From: Promethearchaeati archaeon
GTDB lineage: Archaea > Asgardarchaeota > Heimdallarchaeia > Heimdallarchaeales > Heimdallarchaeaceae
DNA: 16,303 bases
Reading direction: 5' to 3'
NCBI GenBank assembly: GCA_013166775.1
Contig: JABLTJ010000046.1
Coordinates: 1 to 16,303 of the forward strand
Shown: piece after piece, positions 1,170 to 16,303 of the stretch
Layout of the letters: each line of letters starts with the position of its first letter
Position numbering within the stretch: the stretch's first letter is position 1
Notes under the pieces: model-generated
What the model saw: only the letters and a program-made list of their open reading frames with translations
Databases searched by the model: none
What the model was told of the DNA's origin: nothing
Program-made: the position numbers and the translations under genes

Positions 1170-4100
1170 ATGCACAAGAAATTTACAAGAAACATGCAAT
1201 TTTTATTCTTCTCTCTTCTTCTAATAAATTCATTCTTTCCTTCGTTCAATATCGTGGGATCTGAGGATATAAACGAAAGAGAAATTCTAAGTTCTGATCC
1301 ATTAGGTAGTCAAAAACTAGCTGAAATACCTTCTGAGAATCCACCTAATCTTGATTATATTGATCAAAATGATATGAATGTTTATACTACTTCTGATAGA
1401 TTTGAGGGCTACAACCTTTTTGTTGTTAACCGCTTATATTCTAAATCGAATGATATTATTCTCTTAGTCACTGATATGGATGGCAATGTACTCAAAGAAA
1501 AATATCTTGGAACAAAAACTTATACATTATATGTTTCACCTAAGTTCATTAACGCTACGCATATTCTTTATGGAGCTCCTGATGGAGCAAGACTTTGGAA
1601 TTATTATACAGATGAAGATGTGTCTTTAGGATTTTATGGACATCATGAGTACGAATACAATCCTGTGCAAGAAACTTTTTTCACTATCAATAGATATACT
1701 GAAATTATAAATGAAGTAAATTATTACTTTGATCACATCCAAGAATACGATTCAACAGGAAACAAGATTTGGGAATTAAGTACATTTACATTTCATACTA
1801 TTGATATGTGGTGTTATTATGAAGAACTCTTTAACTTTAGACCTGATATCTCTCATTCTAACTCAATCTTTTTCGATGCTGAGGAAGATATGATTTATTG
1901 TAATTCAAGAAACACAAATACTTTCTATAAAATCGACCATAGTACGGGCATAGTAGAATGGGCTCTAGGAGAATATGGAGATTTTACTCTTTATGATTTA
2001 AAAGGTAATGTGAAAAATAATTTGTTTTATCATGCTCACGCAGTTGAAAAGATTGATGATAATAAATTCCTCTTATTCGATAATGATTACCATAATCAAA
2101 CCGATGAGGAAAGCAATATCTCTAGACTTGTTGAAATTACAATTGATGAAAATACAATGACTGCTAACGAAACTTGGACTTGGGAAGCTCCAAGTAGTTA
2201 CTATAGTGATGTTTGGGGAGACGCTGATCCACTTCCGAATGGGAATGTTTTTGGAACATTTGGAGCATTCGAGCATGATGGCTATATTAGTATCGGAGCT
2301 AGAATGATAGAAGTAAACACAACTGGTGATATCGTCTGGGAGATGAATTTCCCTATGACAAATTATCATTATGGAATATACAGAGCTGAAAGATTTGGTT
2401 TGTCACCATTTATTAATGCTTCTTCTAAACTCTTTGCAGGTTCAGGAACAGAAATATCAGCTACCTTCCAGACTTGGTATAATTTCAGATCAAAAATAAA
2501 AACGATAGGATCTTATGATCTTTATTTAGATGATGCTTTAATCGATACAGATTCTGTTCAATTTGATAAGTTTTGGCGTGTAAAAAACCTCACTTTTGAA
2601 TTAGGTATTTTACCTGATGGTCAACATAATCTTACCGTTGCTATTGCAGATGAAGCTGGGCATACTACTATCAAGACTATATTCATTAATATAGGACCAT
2701 TCTACATTGAAAAAACGGGGCCAACAGAGATGGAAATTGGAGAAACAAATTCGATAATCAGTTGGTCAGGTTACGCTATAAGTCCCTTGGAGTTCAATTT
2801 GATTATCAATGATACAAATGAAATCACTGACACTTGGAGCGGTGAAATTGTTGAATATGACTTAAATGAATTAATAGCGGGGATACATAATTTCACAGTT
2901 CAACTTTACAACGGAACGGAATTAGTTTTTAATGAAACTTTTTGGGTTACTATCTTCCCATATTCTCCTCCTGTTTTTAACAGTTTTCCAAGTGATCAAT
3001 CAATAACTTGGAATGACTACTTGATGCTCTCATGGAATGTGTCAGATTCCACTCTTTACAAAATAGAACTCTATTTTGATGGTACATTAGCTAGACAAAT
3101 TGATTTTTCAATTCCTCCATTAAGCTATGTTTTTGATTATGTTTTCCCACTTGTCGATGAAGGAAATTATAATGTCACTTTACTTATTATCGATAGGACA
3201 CTAGGGAGTGTTTTAAAAACAACATGGATAGAAGTTGCTCCACCTAGTCCTCCTATTATTTCTCAATTTCCAATGAATGATTTTGTTCAATGGGGACATC
3301 AAAACACTAGTTTCATCTGGGAAGTTCATGGAGAAAGTGATTCTTCATGGAAATTACTAAAAAATGAAAGCATCTATGCTAGTGGAGTTCTTAGTAATAA
3401 AATAATAGAGATTTCTATTGAAGATTGGTATGATATTGAGTGGTACCTAGGAACATATAATCTCACATTATCAGTAGAAGATACTTATGGAAATACCACA
3501 ATTAGCACAGTTTTTATTAAAATAGCAATTGCAGGAGATCCTTATGTTAACGCTATTATTGAGATTGCTTCCCTTTTCTACTACAACGGTGAAAATGCGA
3601 TAGGAGCACCCGATGGTGAATGTGCTCAAATCTTTGCAGATTATAGCAATGGATTTATTACTTTAGATATGGGAAGAGACGAAGAAATTGTTGATGGAGA
3701 TGGAGATGATTTTACGATTATCTCATCATCTGGTCGTTTTGATTGTTGGGTAGGGAATAATCTTGAAGAATCATTTGTATTTCTTGGATCAGGTGAAGGA
3801 AATACTTCTTTTGATTTGAATGCGAAAGACTTAGATTCAGCAAGATATGTGAGAATAGAATATACTTCTGGCATAATGGTTAGAGTTGATGCGATAGTAG
3901 CATTAAATTATCTTATTCTAGAATCTGATTCTGAAAGCCCTGAAATTATCGGACCAGATGATTTTGTTATAAATAATAATGTGACTTCTTTCACCATTTC
4001 TTGGCTGCTTTATGATATTACTCCTTTCAATTTTTCGATAACCATAAATGATGAAGTTTATGATTCAGGCCCATGGAATGGTTCTGATATCACACTTACA

Positions 4101-4289
4101 TACGTTTGGGATGAATTAGGTTTATATGAAGTTGAACTTATTCTCTATGATATCTTTGGGAATCATGCTTCAGACATAGTCAATGTTCAAGTTGAAAATC
4201 AGGATAATAGACCATATTTGTATTTTCTTTTTCTACTTTCACTAGCTGCAATTCCTATATTCCTCTTACAAAGAAAAAGAAAAGTATAA
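1170..4289 (+). CDS. Secreted, C-terminally anchored aryl-sulfate sulfotransferase (ASST family) with Ig-like repeat stalk
   Basis: N-terminal signal peptide (basic then hydrophobic). ASST motifs GHHE (1638-1649), SHSNS (H at 1854), NSR (R at 1908), HAH (2031-2039), LLFDN, LPNGN and YRAER. Five G-x-[HY]-[NE]-x-[TE] beta-sandwich repeats. C-terminal TM helix followed by RKRKV. Confidence 0.85.
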   Translation: MHKKFTRNMQFLFFSLLLINSFFPSFNIVGSEDINEREILSSDPLGSQKLAEIPSENPPNLDYIDQNDMNVYTTSDRFEGYNLFVVNRLYSKSNDIILLVTDMDGNVLKEKYLGTKTYTLYVSPKFINATHILYGAPDGARLWNYYTDEDVSLGFYGHHEYEYNPVQETFFTINRYTEIINEVNYYFDHIQEYDSTGNKIWELSTFTFHTIDMWCYYEELFNFRPDISHSNSIFFDAEEDMIYCNSRNTNTFYKIDHSTGIVEWALGEYGDFTLYDLKGNVKNNLFYHAHAVEKIDDNKFLLFDNDYHNQTDEESNISRLVEITIDENTMTANETWTWEAPSSYYSDVWGDADPLPNGNVFGTFGAFEHDGYISIGARMIEVNTTGDIVWEMNFPMTNYHYGIYRAERFGLSPFINASSKLFAGSGTEISATFQTWYNFRSKIKTIGSYDLYLDDALIDTDSVQFDKFWRVKNLTFELGILPDGQHNLTVAIADEAGHTTIKTIFINIGPFYIEKTGPTEMEIGETNSIISWSGYAISPLEFNLIINDTNEITDTWSGEIVEYDLNELIAGIHNFTVQLYNGTELVFNETFWVTIFPYSPPVFNSFPSDQSITWNDYLMLSWNVSDSTLYKIELYFDGTLARQIDFSIPPLSYVFDYVFPLVDEGNYNVTLLIIDRTLGSVLKTTWIEVAPPSPPIISQFPMNDFVQWGHQNTSFIWEVHGESDSSWKLLKNESIYASGVLSNKIIEISIEDWYDIEWYLGTYNLTLSVEDTYGNTTISTVFIKIAIAGDPYVNAIIEIASLFYYNGENAIGAPDGECAQIFADYSNGFITLDMGRDEEIVDGDGDDFTIISSSGRFDCWVGNNLEESFVFLGSGEGNTSFDLNAKDLDSARYVRIEYTSGIMVRVDAIVALNYLILESDSESPEIIGPDDFVINNNVTSFTISWLLYDITPFNFSITINDEVYDSGPWNGSDITLTYVWDELGLYEVELILYDIFGNHASDIVNVQVENQDNRPYLYFLFLLSLAAIPIFLLQRKRKV

Positions 4290-4354
4290 TTCTTTATCGC
4301 AACGTTACATCCAATATTTTTTAAGTGACAATTTTGGGTTAAGAATGATAACTA

Positions 4355-5155
4355 GTGGCAACCAACGAGAGCTATGAATTTAAAGAGGAATTTAACATTC
4401 TTTGTCAAAGTGCAAAGAAAGCTAGAACTGAGTTATTAAAAATCGTCGAAAAGGGTTTTAGTAAAACACTCAAAGCAAATGATGATCCCGTAACAACTGG
4501 AGATTTTACTGTCAACAATATACTTCAAGAAGAATTTTCCAAGCATTTTCCAGAGATAGGTTGGTTGTCTGAAGAAACAAGAGATAATGCGGACAGATTA
4601 GACAAAGAATTTGTTTGGATTGTAGATCCAATAGATGGAACAAAAGAATTTGTAATGGGTATCCCTGAATATTCAATCTCTGTTGCATTAGTAAGAAAGG
4701 GTTCTCCAATTTTGGGATTGATTCTCAATCCTCTTCGAGATGAGATGTATACTGCAATCAAAGGTAAAGGAGCTTTCTTAAATGAGAAGTCTATTCGAGT
4801 CAAAGAAACTCTTGATGAAAAACCCACAATAGTGGCAAGTAGATCTGAAATCAAAAGAGGTGAATTCGAACCATTTGAGAATGTTTCGAAAGTTGTTCCG
4901 ACAGGTTCTATAGCATACAAATTAGCACTCGTTGCTGCAGGAAAAGCTGATGGTACTTTCAGCCTAGGTCCAAAAAATGAATGGGACATTGCTGCTGGAT
5001 GTTTGATTGTTGAAGAAGCTGGAGGGAAGGTCAGTAACAAATATGGACAAGATTTTAAATTCAACCAGAAAGACACTCTTGTAAATTCCATAGTTGGAAC
5101 ATCAAAAGCTGCGTCTGAGCAGATATTTAGTATGATTCAAAAAGTGATGAATTAA
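4355..5155 (+). CDS. cysQ: 3'(2'),5'-bisphosphate nucleotidase CysQ (PAP phosphatase; inositol monophosphatase family)
   Basis: GTG start; motifs DPVTTGD, LSEE, WIVDPIDGTKEF, ASRS, GSIAYK, EWDIAAG; ends 1 nt before sat-cysC. Confidence 0.9.
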   Translation: MATNESYEFKEEFNILCQSAKKARTELLKIVEKGFSKTLKANDDPVTTGDFTVNNILQEEFSKHFPEIGWLSEETRDNADRLDKEFVWIVDPIDGTKEFVMGIPEYSISVALVRKGSPILGLILNPLRDEMYTAIKGKGAFLNEKSIRVKETLDEKPTIVASRSEIKRGEFEPFENVSKVVPTGSIAYKLALVAAGKADGTFSLGPKNEWDIAAGCLIVEEAGGKVSNKYGQDFKFNQKDTLVNSIVGTSKAASEQIFSMIQKVMN

Positions 5156-5156
5156 A

Positions 5157-6890
5157 ATGAATGGAAAAAGTAAGCTTATACTACCTCATGGTGGAAAGAT
5201 AGTTGATTTAGTAGTTAAAGATGAAAAAATCAGATTTGATCTTATTGAGAAAGCAAAAACTCTTACAAAAGTAAATCTCAATGAGAGAGGCTTAGCAGAT
5301 TTAGAATGTATTGCGACCGGTATTTATTCTCCATTAACAGGTTTCTTGGAAGAAAAAGATTACAAAAGTGTATTGAATGAAATGAGACTAACCGATGGAA
5401 CAATCTGGCCAATTCCAATAACCTTAGCAGTTAGTGAAGATGTTTCTTCAAAATTCAAAGTTGGAGATGAAGCTTCGCTAATGTGGGATGATGTTCATAT
5501 TGGTTTAATGAAAGTTTCAAGTATCTATAAACCTGATAAAAAGGAAGAAGCAATTAAAGTCTATAAAACAGAAGATATTTCTCATCCTGGAGTAGACGCA
5601 TTGTATAAAACTGAGGATGTTTATTTAGGAGGAGAAATTCAACTAATTGAAGAATTACCTCATAAAGAATTCAATGAGTATAGATTTACTCCTAAACATA
5701 CTAGAGCAATTTTTGAAGAGAAAGGATGGAAAACAGTTGTTGCGTTCCAAACAAGAAATCCAATTCATAGGGCTCATGAACATCTTCAAAAAATCGCTTT
5801 GGAATATGTTGATGGATTGTTCATCAATCCACTTGTAGGAGCTACAAAGAAAGATGATATTTCAGCTTCAGTCAGAATGGAATCTTACAATATTATTTTG
5901 AACAGTTACTATCCAAGGGATAGATACTTCTTAGGAGTTTATCCTGCTAATATGAGATATGCAGGACCTCGTGAAGCTATCCTGCACGCTATTTCCAGAC
6001 AAAATTATGGTTGTTCTCATTTCATAGTAGGCAGAGATCATGCAGGTGTTGGAGATTACTATGGCACTTACGAAGCTCAAGAAATCTTCGACCAATTTTC
6101 AAAAGACGAGTTACTGATTACTCCTCTGAAATTTGAACATGCTTTTTATTGCCGAATCTGTGAACAGATGGTAACAAAAAGAACTTGCCCACATGGAAAA
6201 GATGCTCACGTATTCTTATCAGGAACAAAAGTCAGAGAGATGCTTAATAATGGAGAAATGCTTCCTCGAGAATTCACTCGACCTGAAGTAGCAATGATTT
6301 TAATTGATTCTGTTAATAATAAAAGAGCATACAAACTAGAACAAAAGGGTGTTACAATGCTTTTTACAGGGCTCTCTGGTTCAGGAAAAACCACTATATC
6401 AAAAGCTGCAGCTGAAGAATTGAAAAAACGAGGATACAAAGTGGAAAGACTAGATGCAGATATTATCAGACAAAATCTTAGCAAGGGACTTGGCTTCAGT
6501 AAGGATGACCGTGATGAAAACATTCGTAGAGTTGGGTTTGTTTGTCATCTTATGAGTAGAAATGGAGTAATTGCTATGATGGCAAATATAGCTCCATACA
6601 TATCTGTACGTGAAGAAATCAGACAAAGAATTGGTGATTTCATGGAAATCTATGTAAAATGCCCTGTTGAAATCTGTGAAACACGCGATCTAAAGGGTCT
6701 TTATGCTAAAGCTCGTGCGGGTGAGATTACTGGTTTCACTGGAGTAGATGATCCTTATGAAGAACCTCAAGCTCCAGAAGTTGTTTGTGAAACTGATAAA
6801 GAAGCTATAGAGGAAAGTGTTCAGAAAGTCATAGATAAGATGGAAGAACTAGGTTACATCGAGCATTTTAAAGTGAAAGAACCTATCTAG
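5157..6890 (+). CDS. sat: Bifunctional sulfate adenylyltransferase / adenylylsulfate kinase (Sat-CysC fusion, PAPS synthase)
   Basis: Sat motifs PHGG, QTRNPIHRAHE, MRYAGPREA, GRDHAG, Zn site CRIC-x8-CPH, LSGTKVR, RPEV. C-terminal APS kinase with P-loop GLSGSGKT (6369-6392), GLGFSKDDRDENIRR, RDLKGLY and DPYEEP. Confidence 0.96.
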   Translation: MNGKSKLILPHGGKIVDLVVKDEKIRFDLIEKAKTLTKVNLNERGLADLECIATGIYSPLTGFLEEKDYKSVLNEMRLTDGTIWPIPITLAVSEDVSSKFKVGDEASLMWDDVHIGLMKVSSIYKPDKKEEAIKVYKTEDISHPGVDALYKTEDVYLGGEIQLIEELPHKEFNEYRFTPKHTRAIFEEKGWKTVVAFQTRNPIHRAHEHLQKIALEYVDGLFINPLVGATKKDDISASVRMESYNIILNSYYPRDRYFLGVYPANMRYAGPREAILHAISRQNYGCSHFIVGRDHAGVGDYYGTYEAQEIFDQFSKDELLITPLKFEHAFYCRICEQMVTKRTCPHGKDAHVFLSGTKVREMLNNGEMLPREFTRPEVAMILIDSVNNKRAYKLEQKGVTMLFTGLSGSGKTTISKAAAEELKKRGYKVERLDADIIRQNLSKGLGFSKDDRDENIRRVGFVCHLMSRNGVIAMMANIAPYISVREEIRQRIGDFMEIYVKCPVEICETRDLKGLYAKARAGEITGFTGVDDPYEEPQAPEVVCETDKEAIEESVQKVIDKMEELGYIEHFKVKEPI

Positions 6891-6973
6891 TTTCTCTTTT
6901 TCTTATTATTTTCTATTTTTTTATATATATAATTAACAATGAGATAAGAGAAAAAAAAAAGAAAGGAACATCT
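6891..6973. terminator. Probable bidirectional oligo(T) terminator between convergent genes
   Basis: T-tracts on + directly after the sat-cysC stop, then A-tracts (T-tracts on -) directly after the stop of the 170-aa ORF. Confidence 0.55.
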
Positions 6974-7486
6974 TTATTCTCTTCGATGTAGATCAACAAT
7001 TATTGAATCACATTCGTTACATATGAAGAAAATTAATCCACTGCAGCCTTCTGCTGTAGCTTGTTGGAGTTTTTTACATGTGGGGCAATGTAAAACAGAA
7101 AATTTAGTTAAATCAGCTAACTTCACTAAATCTAGAATGTTATTATTTGCTATGTCTTCAGTATAATGAAGCGAATCTAATCTATCAAGAGTTTTTAGTC
7201 GTAGATCTAGTTCTAGTAGAAGCTCATCCTGGTGATCATAAAGAATTTTGAACAAATTCTGAATTAAAGGATGAAAATCTTCGAGTTGTTTTTTCTCAAC
7301 TTGAGGTAATTGTAAGAGGATTTCTGAATGATCATCTGATTCGTGAATTAATCTAAGGTGAATATCTTCTTCTATGCATTCTATTTTATTTTCTTCAAAC
7401 TTGATATGCATATATTCTAAAGCTTCATCGAGACAATTGAAACTTCTCAGAGTTCTATCATTTAATTTTAGTTTGTAGATATTCAT
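6974..7486 (-). CDS. Hypothetical protein with C-terminal Zn-ribbon (CPTC-x18-CNEC)
   Basis: 170-aa ORF; GAGGTGA RBS on - strand at 7491-7497; two CxxC knuckles; 11 nt downstream of the 121-aa ORF. Confidence 0.75.
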   Translation of the reverse strand: MNIYKLKLNDRTLRSFNCLDEALEYMHIKFEENKIECIEEDIHLRLIHESDDHSEILLQLPQVEKKQLEDFHPLIQNLFKILYDHQDELLLELDLRLKTLDRLDSLHYTEDIANNNILDLVKLADLTKFSVLHCPTCKKLQQATAEGCSGLIFFICNECDSIIVDLHRRE

Positions 7487-7497
7487 TCTATCACCTC

Positions 7498-7863
7498 TTA
7501 TACAAATTCAACAAGTTCTTCTTCATCAAGAAAAAGTCTTACCAAATCACTCGTAATAGCAATAGCATACTTGTTAAATTTCTGTGGATCTCTAAAGAAA
7601 TCTGCTTTTGTTAATAGTATATTATCTATCCATGTATAAATTACGGGATGGAATAGATCCATCAATCTATTCATCTGAAATTCAGGTACTCCTAAATCAA
7701 GACAAAGTGATTTCATGATTTTTTTTGTCAAATTATCAGCTATTTCTTTCAGTCTTTCTTCTCCTCTCCAGATGTTCCAACCTTCTTTTATAACTGATTC
7801 TATCCAATCAATCAATATTTCATGAATTGTATCCCAAACATTTATTGTCTCATAATTCAACAT
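7498..7863 (-). CDS. Hypothetical protein (predicted helical, acidic)
   Basis: 121-aa ORF with protein-like composition and no competing ORF; operon-like spacing to the 170-aa ORF. Confidence 0.7.
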   Translation of the reverse strand: MLNYETINVWDTIHEILIDWIESVIKEGWNIWRGEERLKEIADNLTKKIMKSLCLDLGVPEFQMNRLMDLFHPVIYTWIDNILLTKADFFRDPQKFNKYAIAITSDLVRLFLDEEELVEFV

Positions 7864-7920
7864 TTTTCCATTTTTCCTTTAGTTTTTTCCATTTTTCATT
7901 TAATTTTTTACATTTTTCCT
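7861..7920 (-). repeat. Degenerate tandem repeat of (G)GAAAAATG units
   Basis: + strand carries five CATTTTTC/CATTT-like units; the - strand reads aggaaaaatgtaaaaaattaaatgaaaaatggaaaaaactaaaggaaaaatggaaaaatg. Confidence 0.6.
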
Positions 7921-8019
7921 TCAGTTCCTGGTTGTTTTTGGTTTTAAATTAGATGTGTCTTAACCTGGAGTACTATCTTCTACACTTTAACAACCAGAAT
8001 TATTGTGTCTATTTGTATC

Positions 8020-8032
8020 ATTGTGACACAAT
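8020..8032. promoter_or_regulatory. Palindrome ATTGTG-A-CACAAT, candidate operator in a divergent promoter region
   Basis: Perfect 6+6 inverted repeat with a 1-nt centre; related TGTG[AT]C words at 7954, 8004 and 8072. Confidence 0.5.
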
Positions 8033-8113
8033 CTAATAAACTTTGTTGTATAATCACGCAAAATAATATACTGTGACAATAATCTTTTTTAAAGAAGTAA
8101 GAATAATTGATAT

Positions 8114-8299
8114 ATGAAGAATGAAACATCTGATAAAATTCACTTGAAAATTGAACTTAGCGAAGAGGATTTTCAAATGTTCTCTGAAATCCAAACTCAT
8201 TATAATATTAAAAATAAAACAGATGTTTTGAGATTATGTATAAAAGATGCGTTCAGGATTATGAAAAGACGAGAACAGTTACTTAAAGAAATGGTCTAG
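8114..8299 (+). CDS. Small ribbon-helix-helix (CopG/MetJ-like) DNA-binding protein
   Basis: 61 aa; alternating strand IHLKIEL, helix SEEDFQMFSEIQTHY, turn, helix NKTDVLRLCIKDA; TTTTTAAA TATA-like box at 8086-8093. Confidence 0.7.
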   Translation: MKNETSDKIHLKIELSEEDFQMFSEIQTHYNIKNKTDVLRLCIKDAFRIMKRREQLLKEMV

Positions 8300-8301
8300 A
8301 T

Positions 8302-8553
8302 TTAAAGAATACAATCTTCTTCTTCTCCAAAAGCCTTTGCAGTATTCTTCAGAATAAAGCACAGAGCTCTCTTTTCATCTTCAACATGATAAAGCTCTTC
8401 CATGCTTGCTATTGTATAAAGAACAATTTTCCTCAATTTTTCAGCAGGTATGTTTTGTACTTCTTCTATAATTTCTTCAGATAATTTCATAACAGTTCTC
8501 TTTGGATCATCTAAATCAGTCCCTTCAAATGGAATTTTTTCTTTCTGTTTCAT
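8302..8553 (-). CDS. Hypothetical protein
   Basis: 83-aa charged, helical-looking ORF, tail-to-tail with the RHH gene (2-nt gap); no recognised family. Confidence 0.65.
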   Translation of the reverse strand: MKQKEKIPFEGTDLDDPKRTVMKLSEEIIEEVQNIPAEKLRKIVLYTIASMEELYHVEDEKRALCFILKNTAKAFGEEEDCIL

Positions 8554-8638
8554 AATCTTTCTCTCACTAATTTTTTTGCAAATTCATGATGTTTATTATA
8601 CACGAGTGCTGACACAAAGAAGTAGAGTAGAATACTCT

Positions 8639-8836
8639 TTAAGATCTATTTTTCTTATTTACTTTAGTAATCATAATATTTCCATCTTCAAATAGTATCC
8701 ATCTCAGTTTATCTCCATTGTCTAATCCTAAAATATCTACTATTTCTTTTGGGACAGTTGTTCTTCTTCTACTTTCTCTTATAGTTAAAGTTGTTTCTGT
8801 GATGTATTCTACTTTATCTATTTCGATAGTTGTCAT
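8639..8836 (-). CDS. AbrB/MazE/SpoVT-family DNA-binding protein
   Basis: 65 aa with the swapped-hairpin signature RTTVPKEIVDILGLDNGDKLRW...DGNIMITK; TTTAAATA box on - at 8860-8867, 23 nt upstream of the ATG. Confidence 0.85.
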   Translation of the reverse strand: MTTIEIDKVEYITETTLTIRESRRRTTVPKEIVDILGLDNGDKLRWILFEDGNIMITKVNKKNRS

Positions 8837-8868
8837 CTAAGCTTATTTAGTCCCCAGCTTATTTAAAG

Positions 8869-8885
8869 TTTGGTTTGAAACCAAA
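8869..8885. promoter_or_regulatory. Palindromic operator-like site TTTGGTTT-G-AAACCAAA abutting the abrB-like TATA box
   Basis: Perfect 8+8 inverted repeat directly upstream (on -) of TATA 8860-8867. Confidence 0.6.
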
Positions 8886-8977
8886 GAAGTTGGAGCATTT
8901 TGTCGTGAGAGGGTTACATTTTGTTTTATTATGTACTATAAGGTCTTAAGGTGTAAATATGTTGAAGCCAAAGGGCA

Positions 8978-9001
8978 TTGGTTTAACACCAAATTTATAA
9001 A
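8978..9001 (+). promoter_or_regulatory. Second TTGGT-N5-ACCAA site plus TATA box of tauE-1
   Basis: TTGGTTTAACACCAA (8978-8992) followed after 1 nt by TTTATAAA (8994-9001). Confidence 0.6.
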
Positions 9002-9033
9002 CACAATGATTATCTCAAACAAAAAGAAAGAAG

Positions 9034-9939
9034 TTGACTTTCATGGTTGAAGTAATTTCATTTACTATTGGATTTTATGTGCTTTTTGGAGTACTTGCAC
9101 TTGTATGTGAATATGTTGATTCGGCAATGGGGGGTGGATATGGTACCATTCTTGTTCCTGTTCTACTAGGTTTTAATATTGATCGTGCTCTACTCGTTCC
9201 TGCAATTCTTTTTACAGAAATTTGGACAGGATTCGGATCAGCCATTCTTCATCACGTTGTAGGTAACGCGAATTTCCGTTTGCGATATTTATCCAAGGAT
9301 AAAAAACCATCTCGGAAATTTTTTGCAGATGGAGGTTCTATTGCAAAAATAGAAGAAAGCGCTCATGAAAAAAAGAATAAAAGAATTTTTGAGATATCTG
9401 ATGATCTAAAAATTTCTGGCGTTTTAGCATTGTTGGGAATAGTCGGAGGAGTAGTTTCTGCAACTGTAGCTCTTAGCATAAATGAAATTGCATTCAAAAC
9501 ATATATTGGTGTTTTAGTTATGCTTATGGGATTTTTAGTTTTCTTTAAATTGAAGTGGAAATTTTCTTGGTGGAAAATATCAGGGATTGGTTTATTAGCA
9601 GCTTTTAACAAAGGACTGAGCGGAGGAGGTTATGGTCCTTTAATCAGTTCAGGACAGATGATTGTTGATAGAAATCCACGTCAAGCAGTAGCATCAACAT
9701 CTCTTTCTGAAGCAGTAGTTTGTGTTGTTTCTCTTATTATCTATATGACCATCGGGGGAAGTGTCCTATCTATGAATTTCTGGTTTCTAGTTATCGCATT
9801 ACTCATTGGAGCACTAATTTCAGTTCCTTTAGCTGTTTACACAGTGAAATACATTCCAATAGGTAAAATGCAACCGATTATTGGTTTTGTCACGATGCTT
9901 CTTGGAGTATTCACGTTAGCAAAAACATTCGCATTTTGA
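9034..9939 (+). CDS. TauE/SafE (TSUP, DUF81) family sulfur-oxyanion transporter
   Basis: Two internal repeats with EYVDSAMGGGYG and NKGLSGGGYGP glycine motifs; multiple TM segments; start is TTG 9034 or ATG 9043. Confidence 0.88.
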   Translation: MTFMVEVISFTIGFYVLFGVLALVCEYVDSAMGGGYGTILVPVLLGFNIDRALLVPAILFTEIWTGFGSAILHHVVGNANFRLRYLSKDKKPSRKFFADGGSIAKIEESAHEKKNKRIFEISDDLKISGVLALLGIVGGVVSATVALSINEIAFKTYIGVLVMLMGFLVFFKLKWKFSWWKISGIGLLAAFNKGLSGGGYGPLISSGQMIVDRNPRQAVASTSLSEAVVCVVSLIIYMTIGGSVLSMNFWFLVIALLIGALISVPLAVYTVKYIPIGKMQPIIGFVTMLLGVFTLAKTFAF

Positions 9940-9947
9940 ATTATTGC

Positions 9948-9975
9948 ATTCTTTTCTTTTTTTTCTCTTCTTGTT
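9948..9975 (+). terminator. Probable oligo(T) terminator after tauE-1
   Basis: ttcttttcttttttttctcttctt shortly after the TGA stop. Confidence 0.5.
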
Positions 9976-9983
9976 ATACTCGA

Positions 9984-10196
9984 TTATTGTTCTTCAATGA
10001 ACAATCCAATTGCTATCCAATCCAAATTTATCTTAGAAACTAGTAAATTAAGCTCCCAAAAAATCTTATCTAATTCCATTAAAATCTCACAGTTTAATTC
10101 TTTAGCTTTGTTGTAGATTTTTTCTATTTGGATATTATTATCAAAATCAAGTAATGTTTCAACCTTATTTTTATCTTCTTCTGATAGTCCACTCAC
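9984..10196 (-). CDS. Hypothetical protein or gene remnant
   Basis: 70-aa GTG-started ORF with protein-like composition; an in-frame upstream ATG (10211) is cut off by TAA (10200-10202). Confidence 0.4.
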   Translation of the reverse strand: MSGLSEEDKNKVETLLDFDNNIQIEKIYNKAKELNCEILMELDKIFWELNLLVSKINLDWIAIGLFIEEQ

Positions 10197-10269
10197 ATTT
10201 TAACTTTTCATCACCTTTTAAAATCTGATTACCTACTTTGTTTATTGAAGATTGATGAATCACCAAAAA

Positions 10270-11112
10270 CTAGGGTGATAAGAAATAAGAAAAGAGAATA
10301 AATATTACAACTAACAAAAGTGAAACTCCAACAAATAGAGAAACTTGTTTTCTTTTCATCTTTCTTTTTAACCATGTTCCGATACCTGCACCTAGAGGAA
10401 GTGAAAGAGCTAAAGATAAAAACAGATACCAATCAATGTGATTTTCAATAATATGTGTACCCCCACCTACAAGTGCTTTTATCAGGATTATTAATAGTGA
10501 TGTTCCTGAAGCCATCAATGGAGGAAATCCAAAACCGAGTATCAGTAATGGTGTATGTAACCATCCTCCACTTAGACCAACCAGACCAGTTAGTAATCCA
10601 CTGAATAATCCTGCAAGAATTAAGATTGGGATACTTACTTTATATGAATAGCTTTCTTGTCTTATTGTTACATTAGGTTTGATTGTTGCTATCCTTTCCA
10701 ATAAGGATGCTTTCTTTTCTTTTTCTATCTCAATTTCCTCTCTCATTGCATATCTAATCATTCTGTAGCTTAGTAATGCCGCTATTAAGCACATAACTAT
10801 CATCAAAATTAATTCTGGTATTCTGTCTGATACTACTGCCCCTACTAATGCACCTATTGAAGAAGGAATTGCAAAAATAATTGCTAGTTTGTAATCAATT
10901 TCCTTTCTTCTCCTTGCACCTAAAACTCCAACTATTGAGAACACAATTACAGCTAACAATGTAGAGCCTACAATAATGACAAATTCATAATCGAATATTG
11001 TAAAGATGAAAGGTACAAGAAATACACCACCACCAAAACCTGCGATAACACTTACAATTCCTACTACTAACGCAACAATTGCTATAATTGCTAATTCAGC
11101 AGCAGTTCCCAT
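10270..11112 (-). CDS. Second TauE/SafE family transporter
   Basis: GFGGGVFLVP and GLVGLSGGWLHTP repeat motifs, ASGTSL, about 8 TM segments. Confidence 0.9.
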   Translation of the reverse strand: MGTAAELAIIAIVALVVGIVSVIAGFGGGVFLVPFIFTIFDYEFVIIVGSTLLAVIVFSIVGVLGARRRKEIDYKLAIIFAIPSSIGALVGAVVSDRIPELILMIVMCLIAALLSYRMIRYAMREEIEIEKEKKASLLERIATIKPNVTIRQESYSYKVSIPILILAGLFSGLLTGLVGLSGGWLHTPLLILGFGFPPLMASGTSLLIILIKALVGGGTHIIENHIDWYLFLSLALSLPLGAGIGTWLKRKMKRKQVSLFVGVSLLLVVIFILFSYFLSP

Positions 11113-11133
11113 AAAATCATCTTTATCTTCTTA

Positions 11134-11183
11134 TATTTAAAGCAATCCCCCTAATCTTATTCTTAATCCGAAAGTATAAAAAA
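11134..11183. promoter_or_regulatory. Back-to-back archaeal promoters for tauE-2 (-) and the dehydrogenase operon (+)
   Basis: TTTAAATA on - at 11134-11141 (21 nt from ATG 11112); BRE-like CCGAAAG (11168-11174) plus TATAAAAA (11175-11182) on + upstream of ATG 11210. Confidence 0.6.
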
Positions 11184-11209
11184 CTACATATCAAAATAAT
11201 CTGAAAACC

Positions 11210-12583
11210 ATGGATTTCATACAGAATTCAATAGCAGATTTTACAACGTACTTAGCACAAAAGATAGAGAATAAATCTGTTAGAGTTGGTGTTTTAGGAT
11301 TAGGTTATGTAGGTTTTCCTCTTTCCATGCAAATAATCAAATCTGGATTAGATTATGTAGGGTTCGATGTGAAAAAAGAAAAAATCATAGCATTCAAGGA
11401 AGGGAAAATTCCTTATGCAGAATATAGTACTGAAGAGAATCTAGAATTATTAGCTAGATCTAATGTTCAGTTTTGTTATCAAACTGATGGATTAAATGGA
11501 GTAGATATATACATAATTTGTGTTCCAACACCTGTTGATGACAGTCTGAATCCGGATCTTTCCTTCATTCGAAAGTCTGTCAATTATATATCAGAAACTT
11601 TCGAAAAAGGGAATGTAATTATTCTTGAGAGTACTGTTTATCCTGGAGTTACCGAAAATGTTGTAGGTAATTTAATTGAAGAAAAAACCGATCTTGTAGC
11701 GGGAGTAGATTTTGGTTTAGCTAACTGTCCTGAAAGAATCAATCCTGGTGACAAGATTCGAACTATAGATAATATTGAACGAGTAATAGGTGCTAGTTCA
11801 ATTAAACTTGCTCAAGAATTAGCTAAATTCTATAATCAATTTATTTCTGCAAAAATTCATATTACTCCTTCCATAAAGGTAGCTGAAGCATCTAAAGTCA
11901 TCGAGAATACTCAGAGAGATGTAAATATTGCACTTATTAACGAATTTGCTCTAATCTTTGAAAAGATGGGGATAGATGTTATGGATGTAATTGATGCTGC
12001 TTCAAGTAAATGGAATTTCATGAAACTAACTCCTGGAGCAGGAGTGGGGGGTCACTGTTTACCTCATGATCCTCTTTACCTTGCAAATCAGTCATCTATC
12101 TTAGGTTATGATCCTCGTTTAATCTATTCTGCAAGAAAAATAAATGATCATATGCCAGTCCATGTTGTAGATATCATTAAGAATATTCTGAATGAAAAAG
12201 GTAAAACTCTGAAAGGGAGCAATATAATCATACTTGGTGCGTCCTATAAACCAAATGTTGATGATCTTCGTACCAGTCCAACAGAAATTTTCATCAAAAA
12301 TATCAAACCGCATAAGCCTAATTTAGTTATTATTGAACCACATGTTCAAGAAACTACAATATACTCTATTCCTAATCAAACGGAGCTAAATGAAGATGTT
12401 TTAAGAAATGCAGATGTATTAGTTCTATTCACAGCTCATGATTATTTCAGAAATCTTAATTGGGAAGAGATTCGAACAAAAATTAAAACTGAAGATGTTT
12501 TGTTTGTTGATGGAAGAAGAATATTTAATCCTGAAATAATGGAGAAACATTACTTATTTTATGCTATTGGAAGAGGTGTTTAA
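11210..12583 (+). CDS. Nucleotide-sugar dehydrogenase, UDP-N-acetylhexosamine 6-dehydrogenase type (WbpA/WecC/TviB-like)
   Basis: GLGYVG Rossmann motif, ICVPTP, ESTVYPG, PERINPG, KVIENTQRDVNIA, catalytic GGHC, YKPNVDDLR. Confidence 0.93.
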   Translation: MDFIQNSIADFTTYLAQKIENKSVRVGVLGLGYVGFPLSMQIIKSGLDYVGFDVKKEKIIAFKEGKIPYAEYSTEENLELLARSNVQFCYQTDGLNGVDIYIICVPTPVDDSLNPDLSFIRKSVNYISETFEKGNVIILESTVYPGVTENVVGNLIEEKTDLVAGVDFGLANCPERINPGDKIRTIDNIERVIGASSIKLAQELAKFYNQFISAKIHITPSIKVAEASKVIENTQRDVNIALINEFALIFEKMGIDVMDVIDAASSKWNFMKLTPGAGVGGHCLPHDPLYLANQSSILGYDPRLIYSARKINDHMPVHVVDIIKNILNEKGKTLKGSNIIILGASYKPNVDDLRTSPTEIFIKNIKPHKPNLVIIEPHVQETTIYSIPNQTELNEDVLRNADVLVLFTAHDYFRNLNWEEIRTKIKTEDVLFVDGRRIFNPEIMEKHYLFYAIGRGV

Positions 12584-13385
12584 TTTGGAGAAAGTGTTAC
12601 TTAATTCTTTACCAAAAGCAGGTACAAATCTTATAGCTAAAGCTTTGGATCTTCTTGGTTTTTATCCCGCTTTTAGTCTTGATCCGGGACTTTTTCTTAG
12701 AGATAAATGGCAAAATCGAGTAAGACGTTTTTTGAATCGTCCTAGGAAGCAAGGATATATCATTGGTATTAATCACCCTATTGAAATTAGTAGAGGTTCA
12801 GTTGAAAGAATACTTCAAAAAACTCAAAAAGGACAGTATATTACTGCACATATAGGTTTCTCTGAAGACATTCTGTCAAGAGCTCTTGAACTTGATTTTA
12901 AAACCATCCAGATGATTAGAGATCCAAGAGCTGTAGCAGCTTCTTATGTTCCTTATGTAGCGAAGAACATAAACAATCCTTTTCACAAGGAATTCTCTCA
13001 AAAATCTAAGAATGAACAGTATCAAATAGCTTTCAAGGGTTATCAAGGAAAGAACATCTCAAAGCAATCTCTTTATACATCATGTCTTGCATTAGAACCT
13101 TGGATTAATTCCAAAGAGACTTTGGTTATTAAATTTGAGGATATTGTTGGTGAGAAAGGAGGAGGGGATGATACGATTCAGAAAGAAGTTCTAACTGAAT
13201 TAGCATCGCGGATTGGAGCACCAAAAGATAAAATTGATTATGTTGTCGAGAATATTTTTGGATCAGGAAGACACACGTTCCGAAAAGGAAAAATCGACTC
13301 TTGGAAAGATGAAATTCCAAAAAACATTCAAAAGACTATGACTGAAGAGTTAGAACCAATTCTCAGAAAATGGAATTATATTTAG
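12561..13385 (+). CDS. PAPS-dependent sulfotransferase (Sulfotransfer_1/3, cytosolic SULT-like); true start probably TTG at 12585
   Basis: 5'-PSB loop SLPKAGT, 3'-PB motif IRDPRAVAAS, IKFEDI, C-terminal FRKGKIDSWK; GAGGTG RBS at 12573-12578 precedes TTG 12585. Confidence 0.9.
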   Translation: MLLEEVFNLEKVLLNSLPKAGTNLIAKALDLLGFYPAFSLDPGLFLRDKWQNRVRRFLNRPRKQGYIIGINHPIEISRGSVERILQKTQKGQYITAHIGFSEDILSRALELDFKTIQMIRDPRAVAASYVPYVAKNINNPFHKEFSQKSKNEQYQIAFKGYQGKNISKQSLYTSCLALEPWINSKETLVIKFEDIVGEKGGGDDTIQKEVLTELASRIGAPKDKIDYVVENIFGSGRHTFRKGKIDSWKDEIPKNIQKTMTEELEPILRKWNYI

Positions 13386-13425
13386 AACTCAAGAGAAAAC
13401 TACACTCTCTTTTGCTGAATATACA

Positions 13426-14241
13426 TTATTTGGTTGGGAAAACATAATCATATTTTTCGATAATGAAATTCTCTTTCTCTGTTATAAGATTCATCGTCTC
13501 TTTATCATAATAATATGAAGCCTCATGATGTTTTGAGACATTTCGTTTTTTTTCTGTTTTACTCAATATCTTTGCTTCAATTTCTTTATCTAATGAATGT
13601 CCTGCTTTTGTAACATTTTTTATAAAATCCTCTTCAAGATTTTCAATATAAATAACTCCGTCTAAAAGATTATTTAATTCATCATATTCTATAAGCTCAT
13701 TATAGTTCTTAATCTTGGAGGAATTTTGTCTTTTGTAGAAATTCTTCATGTGCAATTTACTATATCTATACGTCATAAAACCTGCAAAATCAGAAAGAGA
13801 ACTATTGGAATAGCCCTCTCTAAGATCGGGCATCCTCTTTCTTTCAAAAAGAAGCTTAAGCCAGCTTCTAAAAAGTTCAGCATCTTCATATGTTTCATAA
13901 TAACTTTGCCATAATTTGATAGGTTTAGTAATTTCAGCCCATGCATTTGCAAATCTTAATTTTAGAATATCTTTTAATATTAGAGCAAAATTACGTTTTG
14001 TTAATCTAATGTATAGTCCACCTTTCTTTTCGCATCCAAAGGCCCAAAGAGAGAGATACCAATTCCATGGGTTTCTGATTGAACCGATGATCAGCTTTTC
14101 TGTATTGTAATTAGTCAACCAATTGTGCTTTCCTATCTTTTCTCCCCCAACGAATCTCTTTAGAAGTAAAGCAATGTGAGAACAAGCTGTTTTTGGCATC
14201 TCTAAATAGATTAGTTTACTTGTAATAAACAATTTAGTCAT
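13426..14241 (-). CDS. PAPS-dependent sulfotransferase (Sulfotransfer_2-like)
   Basis: N-terminal YLEMPKTACS, IRNPWNWYLSLW, IYIENLEEDF, N-x-S..YYD near the C-terminus; no TM segment. Confidence 0.8.
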   Translation of the reverse strand: MTKLFITSKLIYLEMPKTACSHIALLLKRFVGGEKIGKHNWLTNYNTEKLIIGSIRNPWNWYLSLWAFGCEKKGGLYIRLTKRNFALILKDILKLRFANAWAEITKPIKLWQSYYETYEDAELFRSWLKLLFERKRMPDLREGYSNSSLSDFAGFMTYRYSKLHMKNFYKRQNSSKIKNYNELIEYDELNNLLDGVIYIENLEEDFIKNVTKAGHSLDKEIEAKILSKTEKKRNVSKHHEASYYYDKETMNLITEKENFIIEKYDYVFPTK

Positions 14242-14305
14242 GTTTCTCTCAATCAGTTTTTATTTATACTTTCTTATTTGAGATTTAAAGAAGATTTATT
14301 TGAAA

Positions 14306-15865
14306 TTAAGCAGATTTAGTTCTGTTATTAATATATGATTTTACTAAATTTTTTGCGAAATTATAATCTTCTTTCTTTATTAATCTGAACAAGAAAATTA
14401 AACCAATATAAATAACAGTACTTATTAGAAAAGGAACAACTAAGTCGATGTTAATTCCACCTTCTATGACAAAAAGATTGAAGATTACACCTATACCAAT
14501 GGAAATTAATGCAGCAATTAGTATTTTCACAACAATTTTGTAATCATAATGTATTTTGAAATAACGCTGGGATACTATTGTTAGCATTATTAAATTAGAA
14601 CCTTTAATTATAAGATACACAATTCCAATTCCAAGCAATCCCAAAGATGGAATCAAGAAATAAGATGCTAGAACACCACTACCTACGCTGATTACTGAGG
14701 CAATAAGAACCCAGTAGTTTTTGTAATAAAGAGTATGTCCATATGCAACAATGTTTGAAAGTTGCTCACAAGCTTGTGAAACAAACAAGAGAGGTATCAA
14801 ATAGATTCCTCCTAGATAACTGCTGTTGGTAAAAAGATACGTAATTAGAATAGGTGAGAATGCAAAGACCAGAATACAGATTGCTATAATAATGATTCCA
14901 TATAATTTAGAAATCATAATCGTCAAATCTTCCATGCTTTCAAGTTTCTTTTTCTCAAAATATTTGAAAATAATCGGTCTATAGACAGTTCTGAACATTT
15001 GCCCTATCATTAACAGAATATTCGCAATCGGTAATGCTCCAAAAACATAGAGAGCTATTAATGCTTCACCATTTTCTGGATATACTTGATCAATATAAAC
15101 AAGCAAGTAAAGATTGAATGTTCTCATTAGCATTACTTTTCCATATACAGGTACAGAAAAAGCAAATACTGATTTAAGCTCTTTAAAAGAAAATTTCCCT
15201 ATCCCCAAATCCTTTATTAAAACGAAACCACAGTATAATGCAACTATAAATTCAGCTGCACTAATACCTAGAATCAGCCCTAATATTCCTAGATCCAAAT
15301 AAATGACAAAGAGGATTCCGAGAGGAATTTGCAGAAGAACACGCATAATAACCGGTATTGTATAATACCTAGAATTTTGTAGAGATGCAGCAATATTGTA
15401 GCATAAGGTTGAAAAGTACTGTGCTAGTGCAATAATTCCAACAGCCAAAAGTGTTAATACATACGGTTCTATCTCTAAGAATGAAGGATAAAAACCTCTT
15501 GCTAAATAAAGTATAAGTAAAATTCCAATTATAAGAACTTCAATAATTACAAACGAAATAAAACCTGAAAAGACTAAATCTTGTAAATTCTTTTTCTTCC
15601 CTTGAATCTTATATGTAACAGTATATCGATTTAAAGCAGTTTGAAAGCCTATACTTGCATAAGCTAGGATTGTCATAGATGCAGTAACAAAGATAGCATA
15701 TTGTCCCATATCCTCTTGGGGAAGGATGTTTGTGAATATTTTTGTGAAAGCAATACTCAGAGCTTTGGCTAGAACAATAGTGATACCAAAAGAAATTAGA
15801 AACTTTGTTCCAGCTCCTTGCTTAAGTAGAGAATATTGCTTTGTTTCTTCCACATCTTTCACCAA
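14306..15865 (-). CDS. Oligosaccharide flippase (Wzx/RfbX, MOP/PST family)
   Basis: About 14 hydrophobic segments; FTNILPQEDMGQY (typical TRxLxxxxYG), LGILG, ELKSVFAFSVP, LIPSLGLLG; glycan-gene context; TTG start. Confidence 0.85.
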   Translation of the reverse strand: MVKDVEETKQYSLLKQGAGTKFLISFGITIVLAKALSIAFTKIFTNILPQEDMGQYAIFVTASMTILAYASIGFQTALNRYTVTYKIQGKKKNLQDLVFSGFISFVIIEVLIIGILLILYLARGFYPSFLEIEPYVLTLLAVGIIALAQYFSTLCYNIAASLQNSRYYTIPVIMRVLLQIPLGILFVIYLDLGILGLILGISAAEFIVALYCGFVLIKDLGIGKFSFKELKSVFAFSVPVYGKVMLMRTFNLYLLVYIDQVYPENGEALIALYVFGALPIANILLMIGQMFRTVYRPIIFKYFEKKKLESMEDLTIMISKLYGIIIIAICILVFAFSPILITYLFTNSSYLGGIYLIPLLFVSQACEQLSNIVAYGHTLYYKNYWVLIASVISVGSGVLASYFLIPSLGLLGIGIVYLIIKGSNLIMLTIVSQRYFKIHYDYKIVVKILIAALISIGIGVIFNLFVIEGGINIDLVVPFLISTVIYIGLIFLFRLIKKEDYNFAKNLVKSYINNRTKSA

Positions 15866-16056
15866 AAATTCAGGTTCATAATTTCTTCAAATTTAAGAGA
15901 ACTTATTATCTTTTTCAATAATACTCTATCTTTAAATCTTATTATTTCAGCATCTTATTTCTTCGAAATCAAGAAAATAAGTTTGTGATCCAAAAGAAAA
16001 TACTTCATGGCAAAAGATATTTATTTAGCTTTGACATTCATGGTTAAGTGATAAAT

Positions 16057-16303
16057 TTGAAAGGAATCATTTTAGCTGGTGGAGCAGGTACTAGGCTCTA
16101 TCCAATAACAAAATCAATCTCTAAACAATTGTTACCTATTTATGATAAACCAATGGTTTACTACCCTCTTTCTGTTCTAATGCTTTCTGGGATAAGAGAG
16201 ATTCTTATCATCTCTACTCCTGAGGACCTTCCACTTTATAAAAGACTTTTTGGAACGGGAGAACAAATCGGATTGTCTTTCTCTTATGCAGTGCAAGAAC
16301 AAC
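16057..16303 (+). CDS. rfbA: Glucose-1-phosphate thymidylyltransferase, 3'-truncated by the window
   Basis: Manual translation from TTG 16057 (alternative GTG 16048): [59 protein letters not shown]..., the canonical RmlA N-terminus; absent from the ORF track because there is no stop in the window. Confidence 0.95.

Follow-up and report, generated by a model that had tools for sequence, protein, structure and literature searches.

A Heimdallarchaeial locus with its own PAPS supply and candidate sulfotransferases in a surface-glycan island

A dedicated supply of the sulfuryl donor 3′-phosphoadenosine-5′-phosphosulfate (PAPS) is encoded together with a sulfotransferase that acts on secreted or surface glycoconjugates in the rhizobial NodPQ/NodH cassettes and with the mycobacterial Stf enzymes. 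NodPQ is of the CysDN type, and the Nod cassettes comprise one sulfotransferase, without a flippase/Rml island and without an aryl-sulfate sulfotransferase (ASST). In the xss (synechan) cluster of Synechocystis sp. PCC 6803 and similar cyanobacterial clusters, sulfotransferases of different subfamilies lie with glycosyltransferases in a Wzx-type cluster, and modification is presumed to be cytoplasmic, on lipid-linked material and prior to flipping (PMC8205485). The nearest archaeal counterpart is the glycosylation cluster of Halobacterium salinarum with Agl30 and Agl31, the characterised enzymes of archaeal N-glycan sulfation (PMC11980604). Here, we analyse a 16,303-base stretch of DNA (the window), which is the entire contig C70 (JABLTJ010000046.1, assembly GCA_013166775.1) of genome bin G000, a member of the Heimdallarchaeaceae, and for which a reading of the letters alone (the original prediction) had proposed a self-contained surface-glycan sulfation system. 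We find one linked locus in which sulfotransferases are embedded among glycan genes, in agreement with that proposal. The window probably comprises the flank that supplies PAPS and the first part, about half, of a surface-glycan island that varies between strains, and the locus would serve the sulfation of a surface glycan.

Like the Nod cassettes, the locus brings a dedicated PAPS supply, which here takes the form of a fusion of sulfate adenylyltransferase and adenosine-5′-phosphosulfate (APS) kinase (Sat-CysC). As in the cyanobacterial clusters, its sulfotransferases are of different subfamilies and sit with glycosyltransferases in a Wzx-type cluster; the xss cluster, however, has Wzy and a polysaccharide co-polymerase, neither of which was found here, and is without a PAPS synthase, CysQ, TauE and ASST, whereas the present host is archaeal and its island varies between strains within fixed flanks. 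With the haloarchaeal cluster it shares an archaeal setting, a glycan predicted here to contain uronic acids, more than one candidate enzyme for sulfating different sugars and a probable flippase, but Agl30 and Agl31 have the alkaline-phosphatase/sulfatase fold and are anchored by aglB, whereas the sulfotransferases here are predicted P-loop PAPS enzymes and aglB is unlinked. Sulfatase-fold enzymes of the haloarchaeal kind were rejected as candidates: the genome has only two weak PF00884 matches, on contigs C94 and C44, both outside the locus. Read in this way, archaeal glycan sulfation extends beyond the sulfatase-fold enzymes of haloarchaea, and the locus is a known kind of system, of bacterial design, in a lineage without an earlier description of it; one of its sulfotransferase families lacks any annotation, and its link with surface ASSTs is unusual. 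A literature search on sulfotransferases and sulfated glycans in Asgard archaea returned no relevant paper; the one Asgard glycoproteomics study, on Promethearchaeum, found no sulfated glycan and calls for work on Heimdallarchaeia (PMC11284389). The locus yields a concrete prediction: within one Heimdall genus, the surface glycans of many members should be strongly anionic and vary between strains (sulfated, and in relatives also pyruvylated or nonulosonic). Anionic surface glycans bear on cell contact with partners, viruses and minerals.

PAPS supply and its use

The predicted PAPS synthase, Sat-CysC (positions 5157–6890, plus strand), comprises PUA_2, ATP-sulfurylase and APS_kinase domains (PF14306, PF01747 and PF01583) and retains the motifs QTRNPIHRAH and GRDHAG and the P-loop GLSGSGKT intact. 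It scores above the cut-offs of TIGR00339 (460.6 bits, cut-off 323) and TIGR00455 (233.4, cut-off 138.7) and under that of the whole-fusion model NF004040 (586.7, cut-off 669). Separated from it by a 1-nt gap is the gene (4355–5155, plus strand) for a 3′(2′),5′-bisphosphate nucleotidase of the IMPase family (PF00459, E 1.7e-55) with the motifs DPIDGT and WDIAAG. This protein had been called CysQ; the family stands, and CysQ (TIGR01331) is its best NCBIfam model, but its 154.8 bits fall under the cut-off of 228.8, and hence we denote it CysQ-like.

To place these genes we compared 47 genomes of the order, 30 of the family and 24 of the genus (g1), a set of relatives that are partly incomplete. 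In the genus, the CysQ-like gene is found in 15 of the 16 genomes that have Sat-CysC and in none of the 8 that lack it, and the two genes are adjacent wherever one contig covers both. This co-occurrence and adjacency argue that the CysQ-like protein is not a housekeeping inositol phosphatase, and we infer that its role is the removal of 3′-phosphoadenosine-5′-phosphate (PAP).

Two permeases of the TauE/SafE (TSUP) family follow downstream, the first at 9034–9939 on the plus strand (PF01925, E 1.3e-21; about eight hydrophobic segments) and the second at 10270–11112 on the minus strand (PF01925, E 2e-44). For both, as for Sat-CysC, Pfam and NCBIfam agree with what the original prediction had called. 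The first permease is linked to Sat-CysC in genera g1, g2 and g4, and a homologue of the second lies close to Sat-CysC in both closed genomes of genus g5 as well. We infer that the two permeases probably serve sulfate uptake.

The PAPS so made could in principle feed a reduction to sulfide for cysteine. One protein speaks for such a route: a 615-amino-acid protein with PUA, PAPS_reduct and 4Fe-4S-dicluster domains, encoded on contig C35 (33200–35044; L013:796–2643, minus strand). It does not co-vary with Sat-CysC, however, being present in 27 of the 30 family genomes, 9 Sat-CysC-negative ones among them, and missing from several positive ones; its role is probably unrelated to sulfate reduction, and its PUA domain points to RNA as the substrate. 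None of the order's 47 genomes, of which two closed ones have Sat-CysC, yielded a NIR_SIR domain of sulfite reductases, which was found in 11 of 14 controls. Sat-CysC itself is accessory (25 of 47 genomes of the order, 16 of 24 congeners), and genes of the Sulfotransfer_3 family occur in all 25 Sat-CysC-positive genomes, as against 6 of the 22 negative ones. In the window, as originally noted, none of the gene calls is a cysH, apr, sir or cysK gene, and no dedicated search was made for AprA and cysK. Because NIR_SIR is absent from all 47 genomes and the CysQ-like gene tracks Sat-CysC, we conclude, with the original prediction, that PAPS is made for sulfation and not for assimilation. It is the lack of a sulfite reductase on which the argument against assimilation depends, and we regard an assimilatory use as highly improbable.

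Sulfotransferases in a strain-variable glycan island

The window belongs to a genome bin of 3.85 Mb (115 contigs, 33% G+C, 88.7% complete, 4.5% contaminated). The small-subunit ribosomal RNA of the bin scores 1311 bits with the archaeal model and 1054 bits with the bacterial one, and the closest Sat-CysC loci, with homologues 92, 81, 80 and 78% identical, all belong to Candidatus Heimdallarchaeota, which confirms the archaeal host that had been supposed and places it among the Asgard archaea. At its left end the window opens inside the gene for an Eco57I/TaqI_C-type DNA methylase, of which it encodes the C-terminal 372 amino acids (1–1119, plus strand; Pfam matches). With a 607-amino-acid homologue from congener G020 as ruler, residues 236–607 correspond to C70:1–1116 and residues 3–247 to C24:737–3, and the two contigs overlap by 38 nt inside the split gene. 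C24 ends in the first ~70 residues of a ~385-residue Sulfotransfer_3 protein and also encodes a 710-residue ASST. At the right end, the final 55 nt of C70 are identical to C10:412–467, and C70:15912–16303 aligns near-perfectly (~390 nt) with C10:79–467, a pattern that resembles a strain bubble where two assembled pieces meet. Both junctions are supported by congeners G020 and G023, in which the gene order from the methylase to a 624-residue protein sits on single contigs. We therefore read C24 (reverse complement), C70 and C10 as one locus of ~31 kb, in which the join of C70 to C10 is very likely. These ~31 kb are ~0.8% of the genome, and they hold its single copy of Sat-CysC, the sole IMPase-family gene found in it, four of its five detectable PAPS-type sulfotransferases (the fifth is on contig C103) and two of its three ASSTs, a clustering far beyond chance.

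Three of the sulfotransferases lie within the glycan genes. ST1 (274 amino acids; 12561–13385, plus strand) matches PF00685 (Sulfotransfer_1) at 33.8 bits (cut-off 22) and contains the loop SLPKAGTN and the R-x7-S motif RDPRAVAAS. ST3, on C10, matches PF13469 at 47.4 bits (cut-off 27) as well as PF00685 and has the motifs GRSGSTW and RHPMAVVNS. The other sulfotransferase in the window, P0001 (271 amino acids; 13426–14241, minus strand), represents a family that has no Pfam or NCBIfam model; it matches neither library even at E = 10 and is placed by its predicted fold. Its AlphaFold model has a mean predicted local distance difference test (pLDDT) score of 93.9, and the top 22 matches of that model in VIA-align are all sulfotransferases (Z 10.2 to 6.8), with kinases next at Z of 6.0 or less; Foldseek against the PDB gave no match at E ≤ 0.001 (weak matches at E ~0.2). 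P0001 carries the motifs MPKTACSH and RNPWNWYLS, in which K17, R56 and S64 are invariant (K17 in 36 homologues), and the family keeps this lysine in a loop of the form PKTxC(T/S)H. The family is large: in a library clustered at 50%, 446 representatives match at E ≤ 1e-30 and 1399 do so at E ≤ 1e-10. Its members, of ~245–310 residues, are annotated as ‘hypothetical’ in bacteria and archaea. The two sulfotransferases originally claimed for the window are thereby upheld, ST1 by PF00685 and P0001 by its predicted fold and its K and R-x7-S motifs. ST1, P0001 and ST3 are predicted PAPS-dependent P-loop sulfotransferases, and none has a signal or membrane segment. Sequence searches of the PDB with ST1, ST3 and a 392-amino-acid sulfotransferase of G020 returned marginal matches, from which the acceptor class is not inferable.

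The best fold matches of P0001 are the Golgi heparan sulfate 2-O-sulfotransferase (PDB 3f5f, Z 10.2) and 6-O-sulfotransferase (PDB 5t03, Z 9.3), over 190–192 aligned residues at 13% identity. The Golgi enzymes are type II membrane proteins, whereas P0001 is predicted to be soluble and cytoplasmic, and their Z-scores lie barely above those of cytosolic SULTs (9.2–9.0). A specific ancestry shared with the Golgi heparan sulfate enzymes is thus not supported. It had been suggested that, in an Asgard host, such a system would bear on the origin of eukaryotic sulfated matrices. By sequence, neither solved nor eukaryotic proteins are close to the three sulfotransferases, and the heparan sulfate fold match is no stronger than the others. 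The link is unsupported because identities are at most 13%, the Z-scores are SULT-like, the families are widespread in bacterial and archaeal metagenomes, and the genes are accessory and strain-variable, with the PAPS genes of genus g5 lying away from glycan genes.

The glycan genes of the window begin with an NDP-sugar 6-dehydrogenase (11210–12583, plus strand) that has three UDPG_MGDP_dh domains and scores 381.7 bits with TIGR03026, above the cut-off. Its best named models, UDP-ManNAc dehydrogenase and TviB, are both under their cut-offs, and it is near UDP-GlcNAc dehydrogenases too; judged by these relatives it would yield an N-acetylhexosamine (HexNAc)-uronic acid precursor. A probable Wzx/MOP-type oligosaccharide flippase of 519 amino acids (14306–15865, minus strand) follows P0001. 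The protein itself has no Pfam or NCBIfam match, even at E = 10, and its assignment comes from ~11 hydrophobic segments and from homologues 40–81% identical to it, of which 29 of 38 carry PF01943, some being named flippase and some belonging to Candidatus Heimdallarchaeaceae. The window closes with the first 85 residues of RmlA (glucose-1-phosphate thymidylyltransferase; 16048–16303, plus strand; TIGR01207, E 1.2e-41), cut at the contig end. Thus the dehydrogenase and RmlA calls of the original prediction are confirmed by Pfam and NCBIfam, and the flippase call is supported by its homologues. One 14-kb Logan contig encodes the exact 271-amino-acid P0001 in the same gene order and breaks off in the flippase; an exact-protein look-up of the 519-amino-acid flippase gave no match.

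On C10, rmlA continues and is followed by rmlC, rmlD and rmlB. The glycosyltransferases that had been missed in the window, and were expected further on, are encoded directly downstream by GT1-family and GT4-family genes, together with ST3 and a conserved 311-residue protein; next on C10 are the genes for a methyltransferase, a polytopic GT87-like protein and an MFS-PhoU protein. The same search for wzy or aglB had a different outcome. The annotated genes in C70 and C10:1–20000 include no recognisable Wzy or chain-length regulator, where a divergent Wzy is easily missed and the GT87-like seven-helix protein is the only other polytopic candidate. The single STT3 (AglB) match of the genome lies outside the locus, at C35:49960–51144, an arrangement in which AglB may still use the glycan product. 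The GT87-like seven-helix membrane protein (L011:9290–10561, minus strand) and the neighbouring fusion of MFS with PhoU_div (DUF47) (L011:10581–12599, plus strand), both on C10, form a conserved right flank in three genera, and the MFS-PhoU fusion is unusual.

Relatives show which parts of this arrangement are fixed. Throughout the genus the left flank keeps the order methylase, cysQ-like, sat-cysC and tauE, often with the 121-residue protein described below and the TauE pair, and the right flank keeps GT4, methyltransferase, GT87-like, MFS-PhoU and the 624-amino-acid protein. Between the flanks, the gene content varies; in G023 and G026 the variable content lies on the opposite side of the PAPS genes. 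The island of G020 encodes a glycerophosphotransferase-like protein, a different Sulfotransfer_1 protein, Wzx and a polysaccharide pyruvyl transferase; it also has NeuB and a fusion protein that joins a CMP-sugar synthase to the C-terminal domain of GT28. In G023, Wzx and a pyruvyl transferase are encoded nearby, as is a sulfotransferase of short length. The pyruvyl transferase and nonulosonic-acid genes of these congeners suggest other anionic decorations. The pattern is that of a strain-variable surface-glycan locus whose recurring theme is added negative charge. Sulfur and glycan genes are linked in genera g1, g2 and g4, as the synteny originally proposed would have it, but not in the closed genomes of g5. 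Taken together, the pyruvyl transferase and nonulosonic-acid genes of the relatives’ islands occupy L017:4010–5098 (minus strand), L017:7099–9865 (plus strand) and L020:5801–6832 (plus strand).

On the explanation that we favour, sulfate would enter, probably through the two TauE permeases, and Sat-CysC, judging from its domains and motifs, would convert it to PAPS. ST1, P0001 and ST3 may then sulfate sugars of a lipid-linked oligosaccharide or nucleotide-sugar precursors, and gene context points to an oligosaccharide built from dTDP-rhamnose (RmlABCD) and HexNAc-uronic acid by GT4-type glycosyltransferases. The CysQ-like phosphatase would remove the inhibitory by-product PAP, and Wzx would flip the finished anionic unit outward, onto surface proteins or as polymer. 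Cytoplasmic sulfation before flipping, as originally proposed, is the natural reading of soluble sulfotransferases that are predicted to have no signal or membrane segment and are encoded among glycan genes. The surface ASST encoded upstream (below) would be a second, PAPS-independent sulfotransferase acting extracellularly. The product had been pictured as glycosaminoglycan-like; this finds no support, since no repeating-disaccharide synthase or polymerase was found and the island content varies among congeners, with rhamnose and HexNAc-uronate here but nonulosonic acid and pyruvylation in the nearest relative.

Several observations weigh against glycan sulfation as the function of the locus. 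Lipids or small molecules could be the acceptors of the sulfotransferases. A priming phosphoglycosyltransferase, Wzy and AglB are all absent from the locus. In the two closed genomes of genus g5, Sat-CysC lies among housekeeping genes, with TauE near and a sulfotransferase ~16 kb away, and G012 (89% complete) has nine sulfotransferase matches and no Sat-CysC. The join of C70 to C10 rests on the 55-nt exact overlap, the ~390-nt near-identity and synteny, without a spanning read. Finally, the genomes compared are relatives and not independent, such that the co-occurrence counts overstate the support, although their direction is clear.

Some of these points would fit sulfotransferases with other targets, such as membrane lipids, small metabolites or protein tyrosines, next to which the glycan genes would be mere neighbours. 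Acceptors are not readable from sequence; a ~385-amino-acid sulfotransferase that is paired with an ASST (below) has its best solved matches, weak ones (E 0.0035), among tyrosylprotein sulfotransferases; and one sulfotransferase of the genome lies off-locus on C103, as the PAPS genes of g5 lie outside a glycan cluster. In the present locus, however, the genes for three sulfotransferases are intermingled with those for the NDP-sugar dehydrogenase, Wzx, the Rml enzymes and glycosyltransferases, and the different sulfotransferases of relatives are again found inside their different glycan islands. Non-glycan targets thus seem distinctly improbable to us.

A predicted surface-anchored aryl-sulfate sulfotransferase

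Upstream of the CysQ-like gene, the window encodes an ASST of 1039 amino acids (1170–4289, plus strand) that matches PF05935 at 81.2 bits (cut-off 24.2; E 1e-22). The protein consists of an N-terminal hydrophobic signal-like segment (residues 11–29), a β-propeller like those of Cpz4 and the E. coli enzyme (EcAST), Ig/PKD-like repeats, a predicted C-terminal membrane helix (residues 1015–1033) and a basic RKRK tail, and it contains 22 N-x-S/T sequons. The hydrophobic segments and the basic tail suggest that it is extracytoplasmic. Its structural model (pLDDT 85.6) is closest in Foldseek to Cpz4 (PDB 9kf4, E 1.9e-17), followed by E. coli ASST at ~1e-14, with unrelated propellers at 1e-8 or weaker; a profile of the Asgard ASST family likewise matches Cpz4 (9kf4, E 3.6e-10) better than E. 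coli ASST (3elq, E 4.6e-4). The periplasmic ASST of E. coli CFT073 (PDB 3ELQ) shares the β-propeller, is extracytoplasmic, as predicted for the window ASST, and acts through His356, Asn358, Arg374 and the sulfo-histidine His436 (PMC13426309). In the profile alignment H229 and N231 fall on EcAST H356 and N358, and R247 falls on R374; H290 is invariant in 24 Asgard homologues and falls on the Cpz4 histidine and within one residue of EcAST H436, an equivalence obtained by offset, as the H436 column lies just beyond the printed profile alignment. The family, the Cpz4-like propeller and the apparently conserved catalytic residues all fit the exported ASST originally called. The differences from the E. 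coli enzyme are considerable: identity is ~16%, and here there are no DsbL/DsbI partners, whereas there is a predicted C-terminal membrane anchor, ~550 extra residues made up of Ig-like and other domains, and a position next to PAPS genes.

Caprazamycin sulfation involves a triad of a type III polyketide synthase (PKS), Cpz6, with the PAPS sulfotransferase Cpz8 and the ASST Cpz4. It proceeds in two steps: PAPS is first used to form pyrone sulfates, which Cpz4 then takes as donors (PMC4257720); as acceptors Cpz4 prefers sugar hydroxyls (PMC13426309). By analogy, a PAPS-type sulfotransferase could sulfate a phenolic or pyrone carrier, such as an alkylpyrone from a type III PKS, the carrier could cross the membrane and the surface ASST could pass the sulfate on to the cell’s own glycans, proteins or other acceptors outside. 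Such a relay, which may supplement the glycan sulfation that we favour, would be sulfation outside the membrane without PAPS and a new piece of prokaryotic cell-surface biochemistry. The likeness of the window ASST to Cpz4 in sequence and fold, its retention of the EcAST active-site residues and its predicted location outside the cell, where no PAPS is available, all fit this idea. Gene order does so too. A long ASST of the 1040 type lies directly upstream of cysQ-sat-cysC in four genomes (G000, G020, G003 and G018) of two genera, and a divergent, head-to-head pair of a ~385-amino-acid PAPS-type sulfotransferase and a ~705-amino-acid ASST is found in at least six genomes, including on C24 here. 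In G020:C102 the order is type III PKS, ASST, sulfotransferase, and in G005:C70 a type III PKS adjoins a long ASST; the closest solved relatives of that PKS include the Mycobacterium tuberculosis alkylpyrone synthase PKS18.

The likeness has limits. Cpz4 belongs to an antibiotic pathway (PDB 9kf4, 9kf2), whereas the window ASST is a large archaeal protein with Ig-like repeats and a predicted surface anchor. The triad, adjacent in a congener, is not contiguous here: the sulfotransferase and ASST are adjacent on C24, and the PKS is on C16, unlinked and of the other subtype (60% identical). PKS and ASST are adjacent in 2 of the 11 PKS-bearing genomes, a PDB sequence search with the paired sulfotransferase revealed nothing that relates it to Cpz8 in particular, no exporter for the carrier was identified, and ASSTs are plentiful in G013 and G014, which have neither a Sat-CysC nor a sulfotransferase match. 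We consider the relay a tentative possibility, clearly less likely than not. Among the order's 47 genomes, 11 have type III PKS genes, which fall into two subtypes ~60% identical; they have both chalcone-synthase domains and the motifs TCTG, HPGG and GNMSS, and lie at C16:78927–80033 (L079:6928–8037) in the present genome and at L077:4946–6064 and L078:6455–7564.

The ASSTs might instead serve scavenging or detoxification, moving sulfate between phenolic sulfates of the environment, apart from the cell’s own PAPS pathway, as has been proposed for gut and uropathogenic bacteria. ASST genes are found in 23 of the 24 congeners, with or without PAPS genes, reach 11 copies per genome and belong to an Asgard-wide family; the natural roles of most bacterial aryl sulfotransferases, moreover, are not established (PMC13426309), which counts in favour of this idea. 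The operon-like position of the long ASST upstream of cysQ-sat-cysC in the four genomes, and the conserved pairing of an ASST with a PAPS-type sulfotransferase, speak against it, and we judge it unlikely. The ASST-like family spans the Heimdall, Hod, Prometh, Thor and Hermod lineages and often forms tandem arrays in congeners; further ASST loci of the present genome are C14:20941–21861 and C24:5422–6369.

The C-terminal half of the long ASST contains a ~135-residue domain (window positions 3516–3923), for which no family was found, and which also occurs as a free-standing open reading frame (ORF) of 204 amino acids, 41–50% identical. In G020:C102 this ORF (L077:4330–4944) stops 2 nt short of the gene for the type III PKS. 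The same domain is matched by part of a 289-amino-acid ORF that follows a short ASST in G023 (L020:3972–4841).

Neighbouring genes

Three small proteins are encoded on the minus strand between Sat-CysC and the first TauE permease. The first two, of 170 amino acids (6974–7486, with a C-terminal CxxC...CxxC ribbon) and 121 amino acids (7498–7863), belong to no family and have no Pfam match; copies of the 121-amino-acid protein, 53% and 45% identical, lie next to Sat-CysC in G023 and G025. The third is a SpoVT/AbrB (MazE-like) DNA-binding protein of 65 amino acids (8639–8836; PF04014, E 2.5e-8), which is also encoded on the Logan contig; its gene lies upstream of the first TauE gene, and the protein is a candidate regulator of the module.

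The 607-amino-acid methylase (window 1–1119 with C24:3–737) lies in the neighbourhood of cysQ-sat-cysC throughout the genus; it is a conserved marker of the left flank, outside the sulfation system. Beyond the locus on C10 lie three large TPR-repeat proteins of 671, 696 and 389 amino acids (L011:14552–19949), and TPR proteins are also found between the short ASST and the methylase, both on C24 and in G020.

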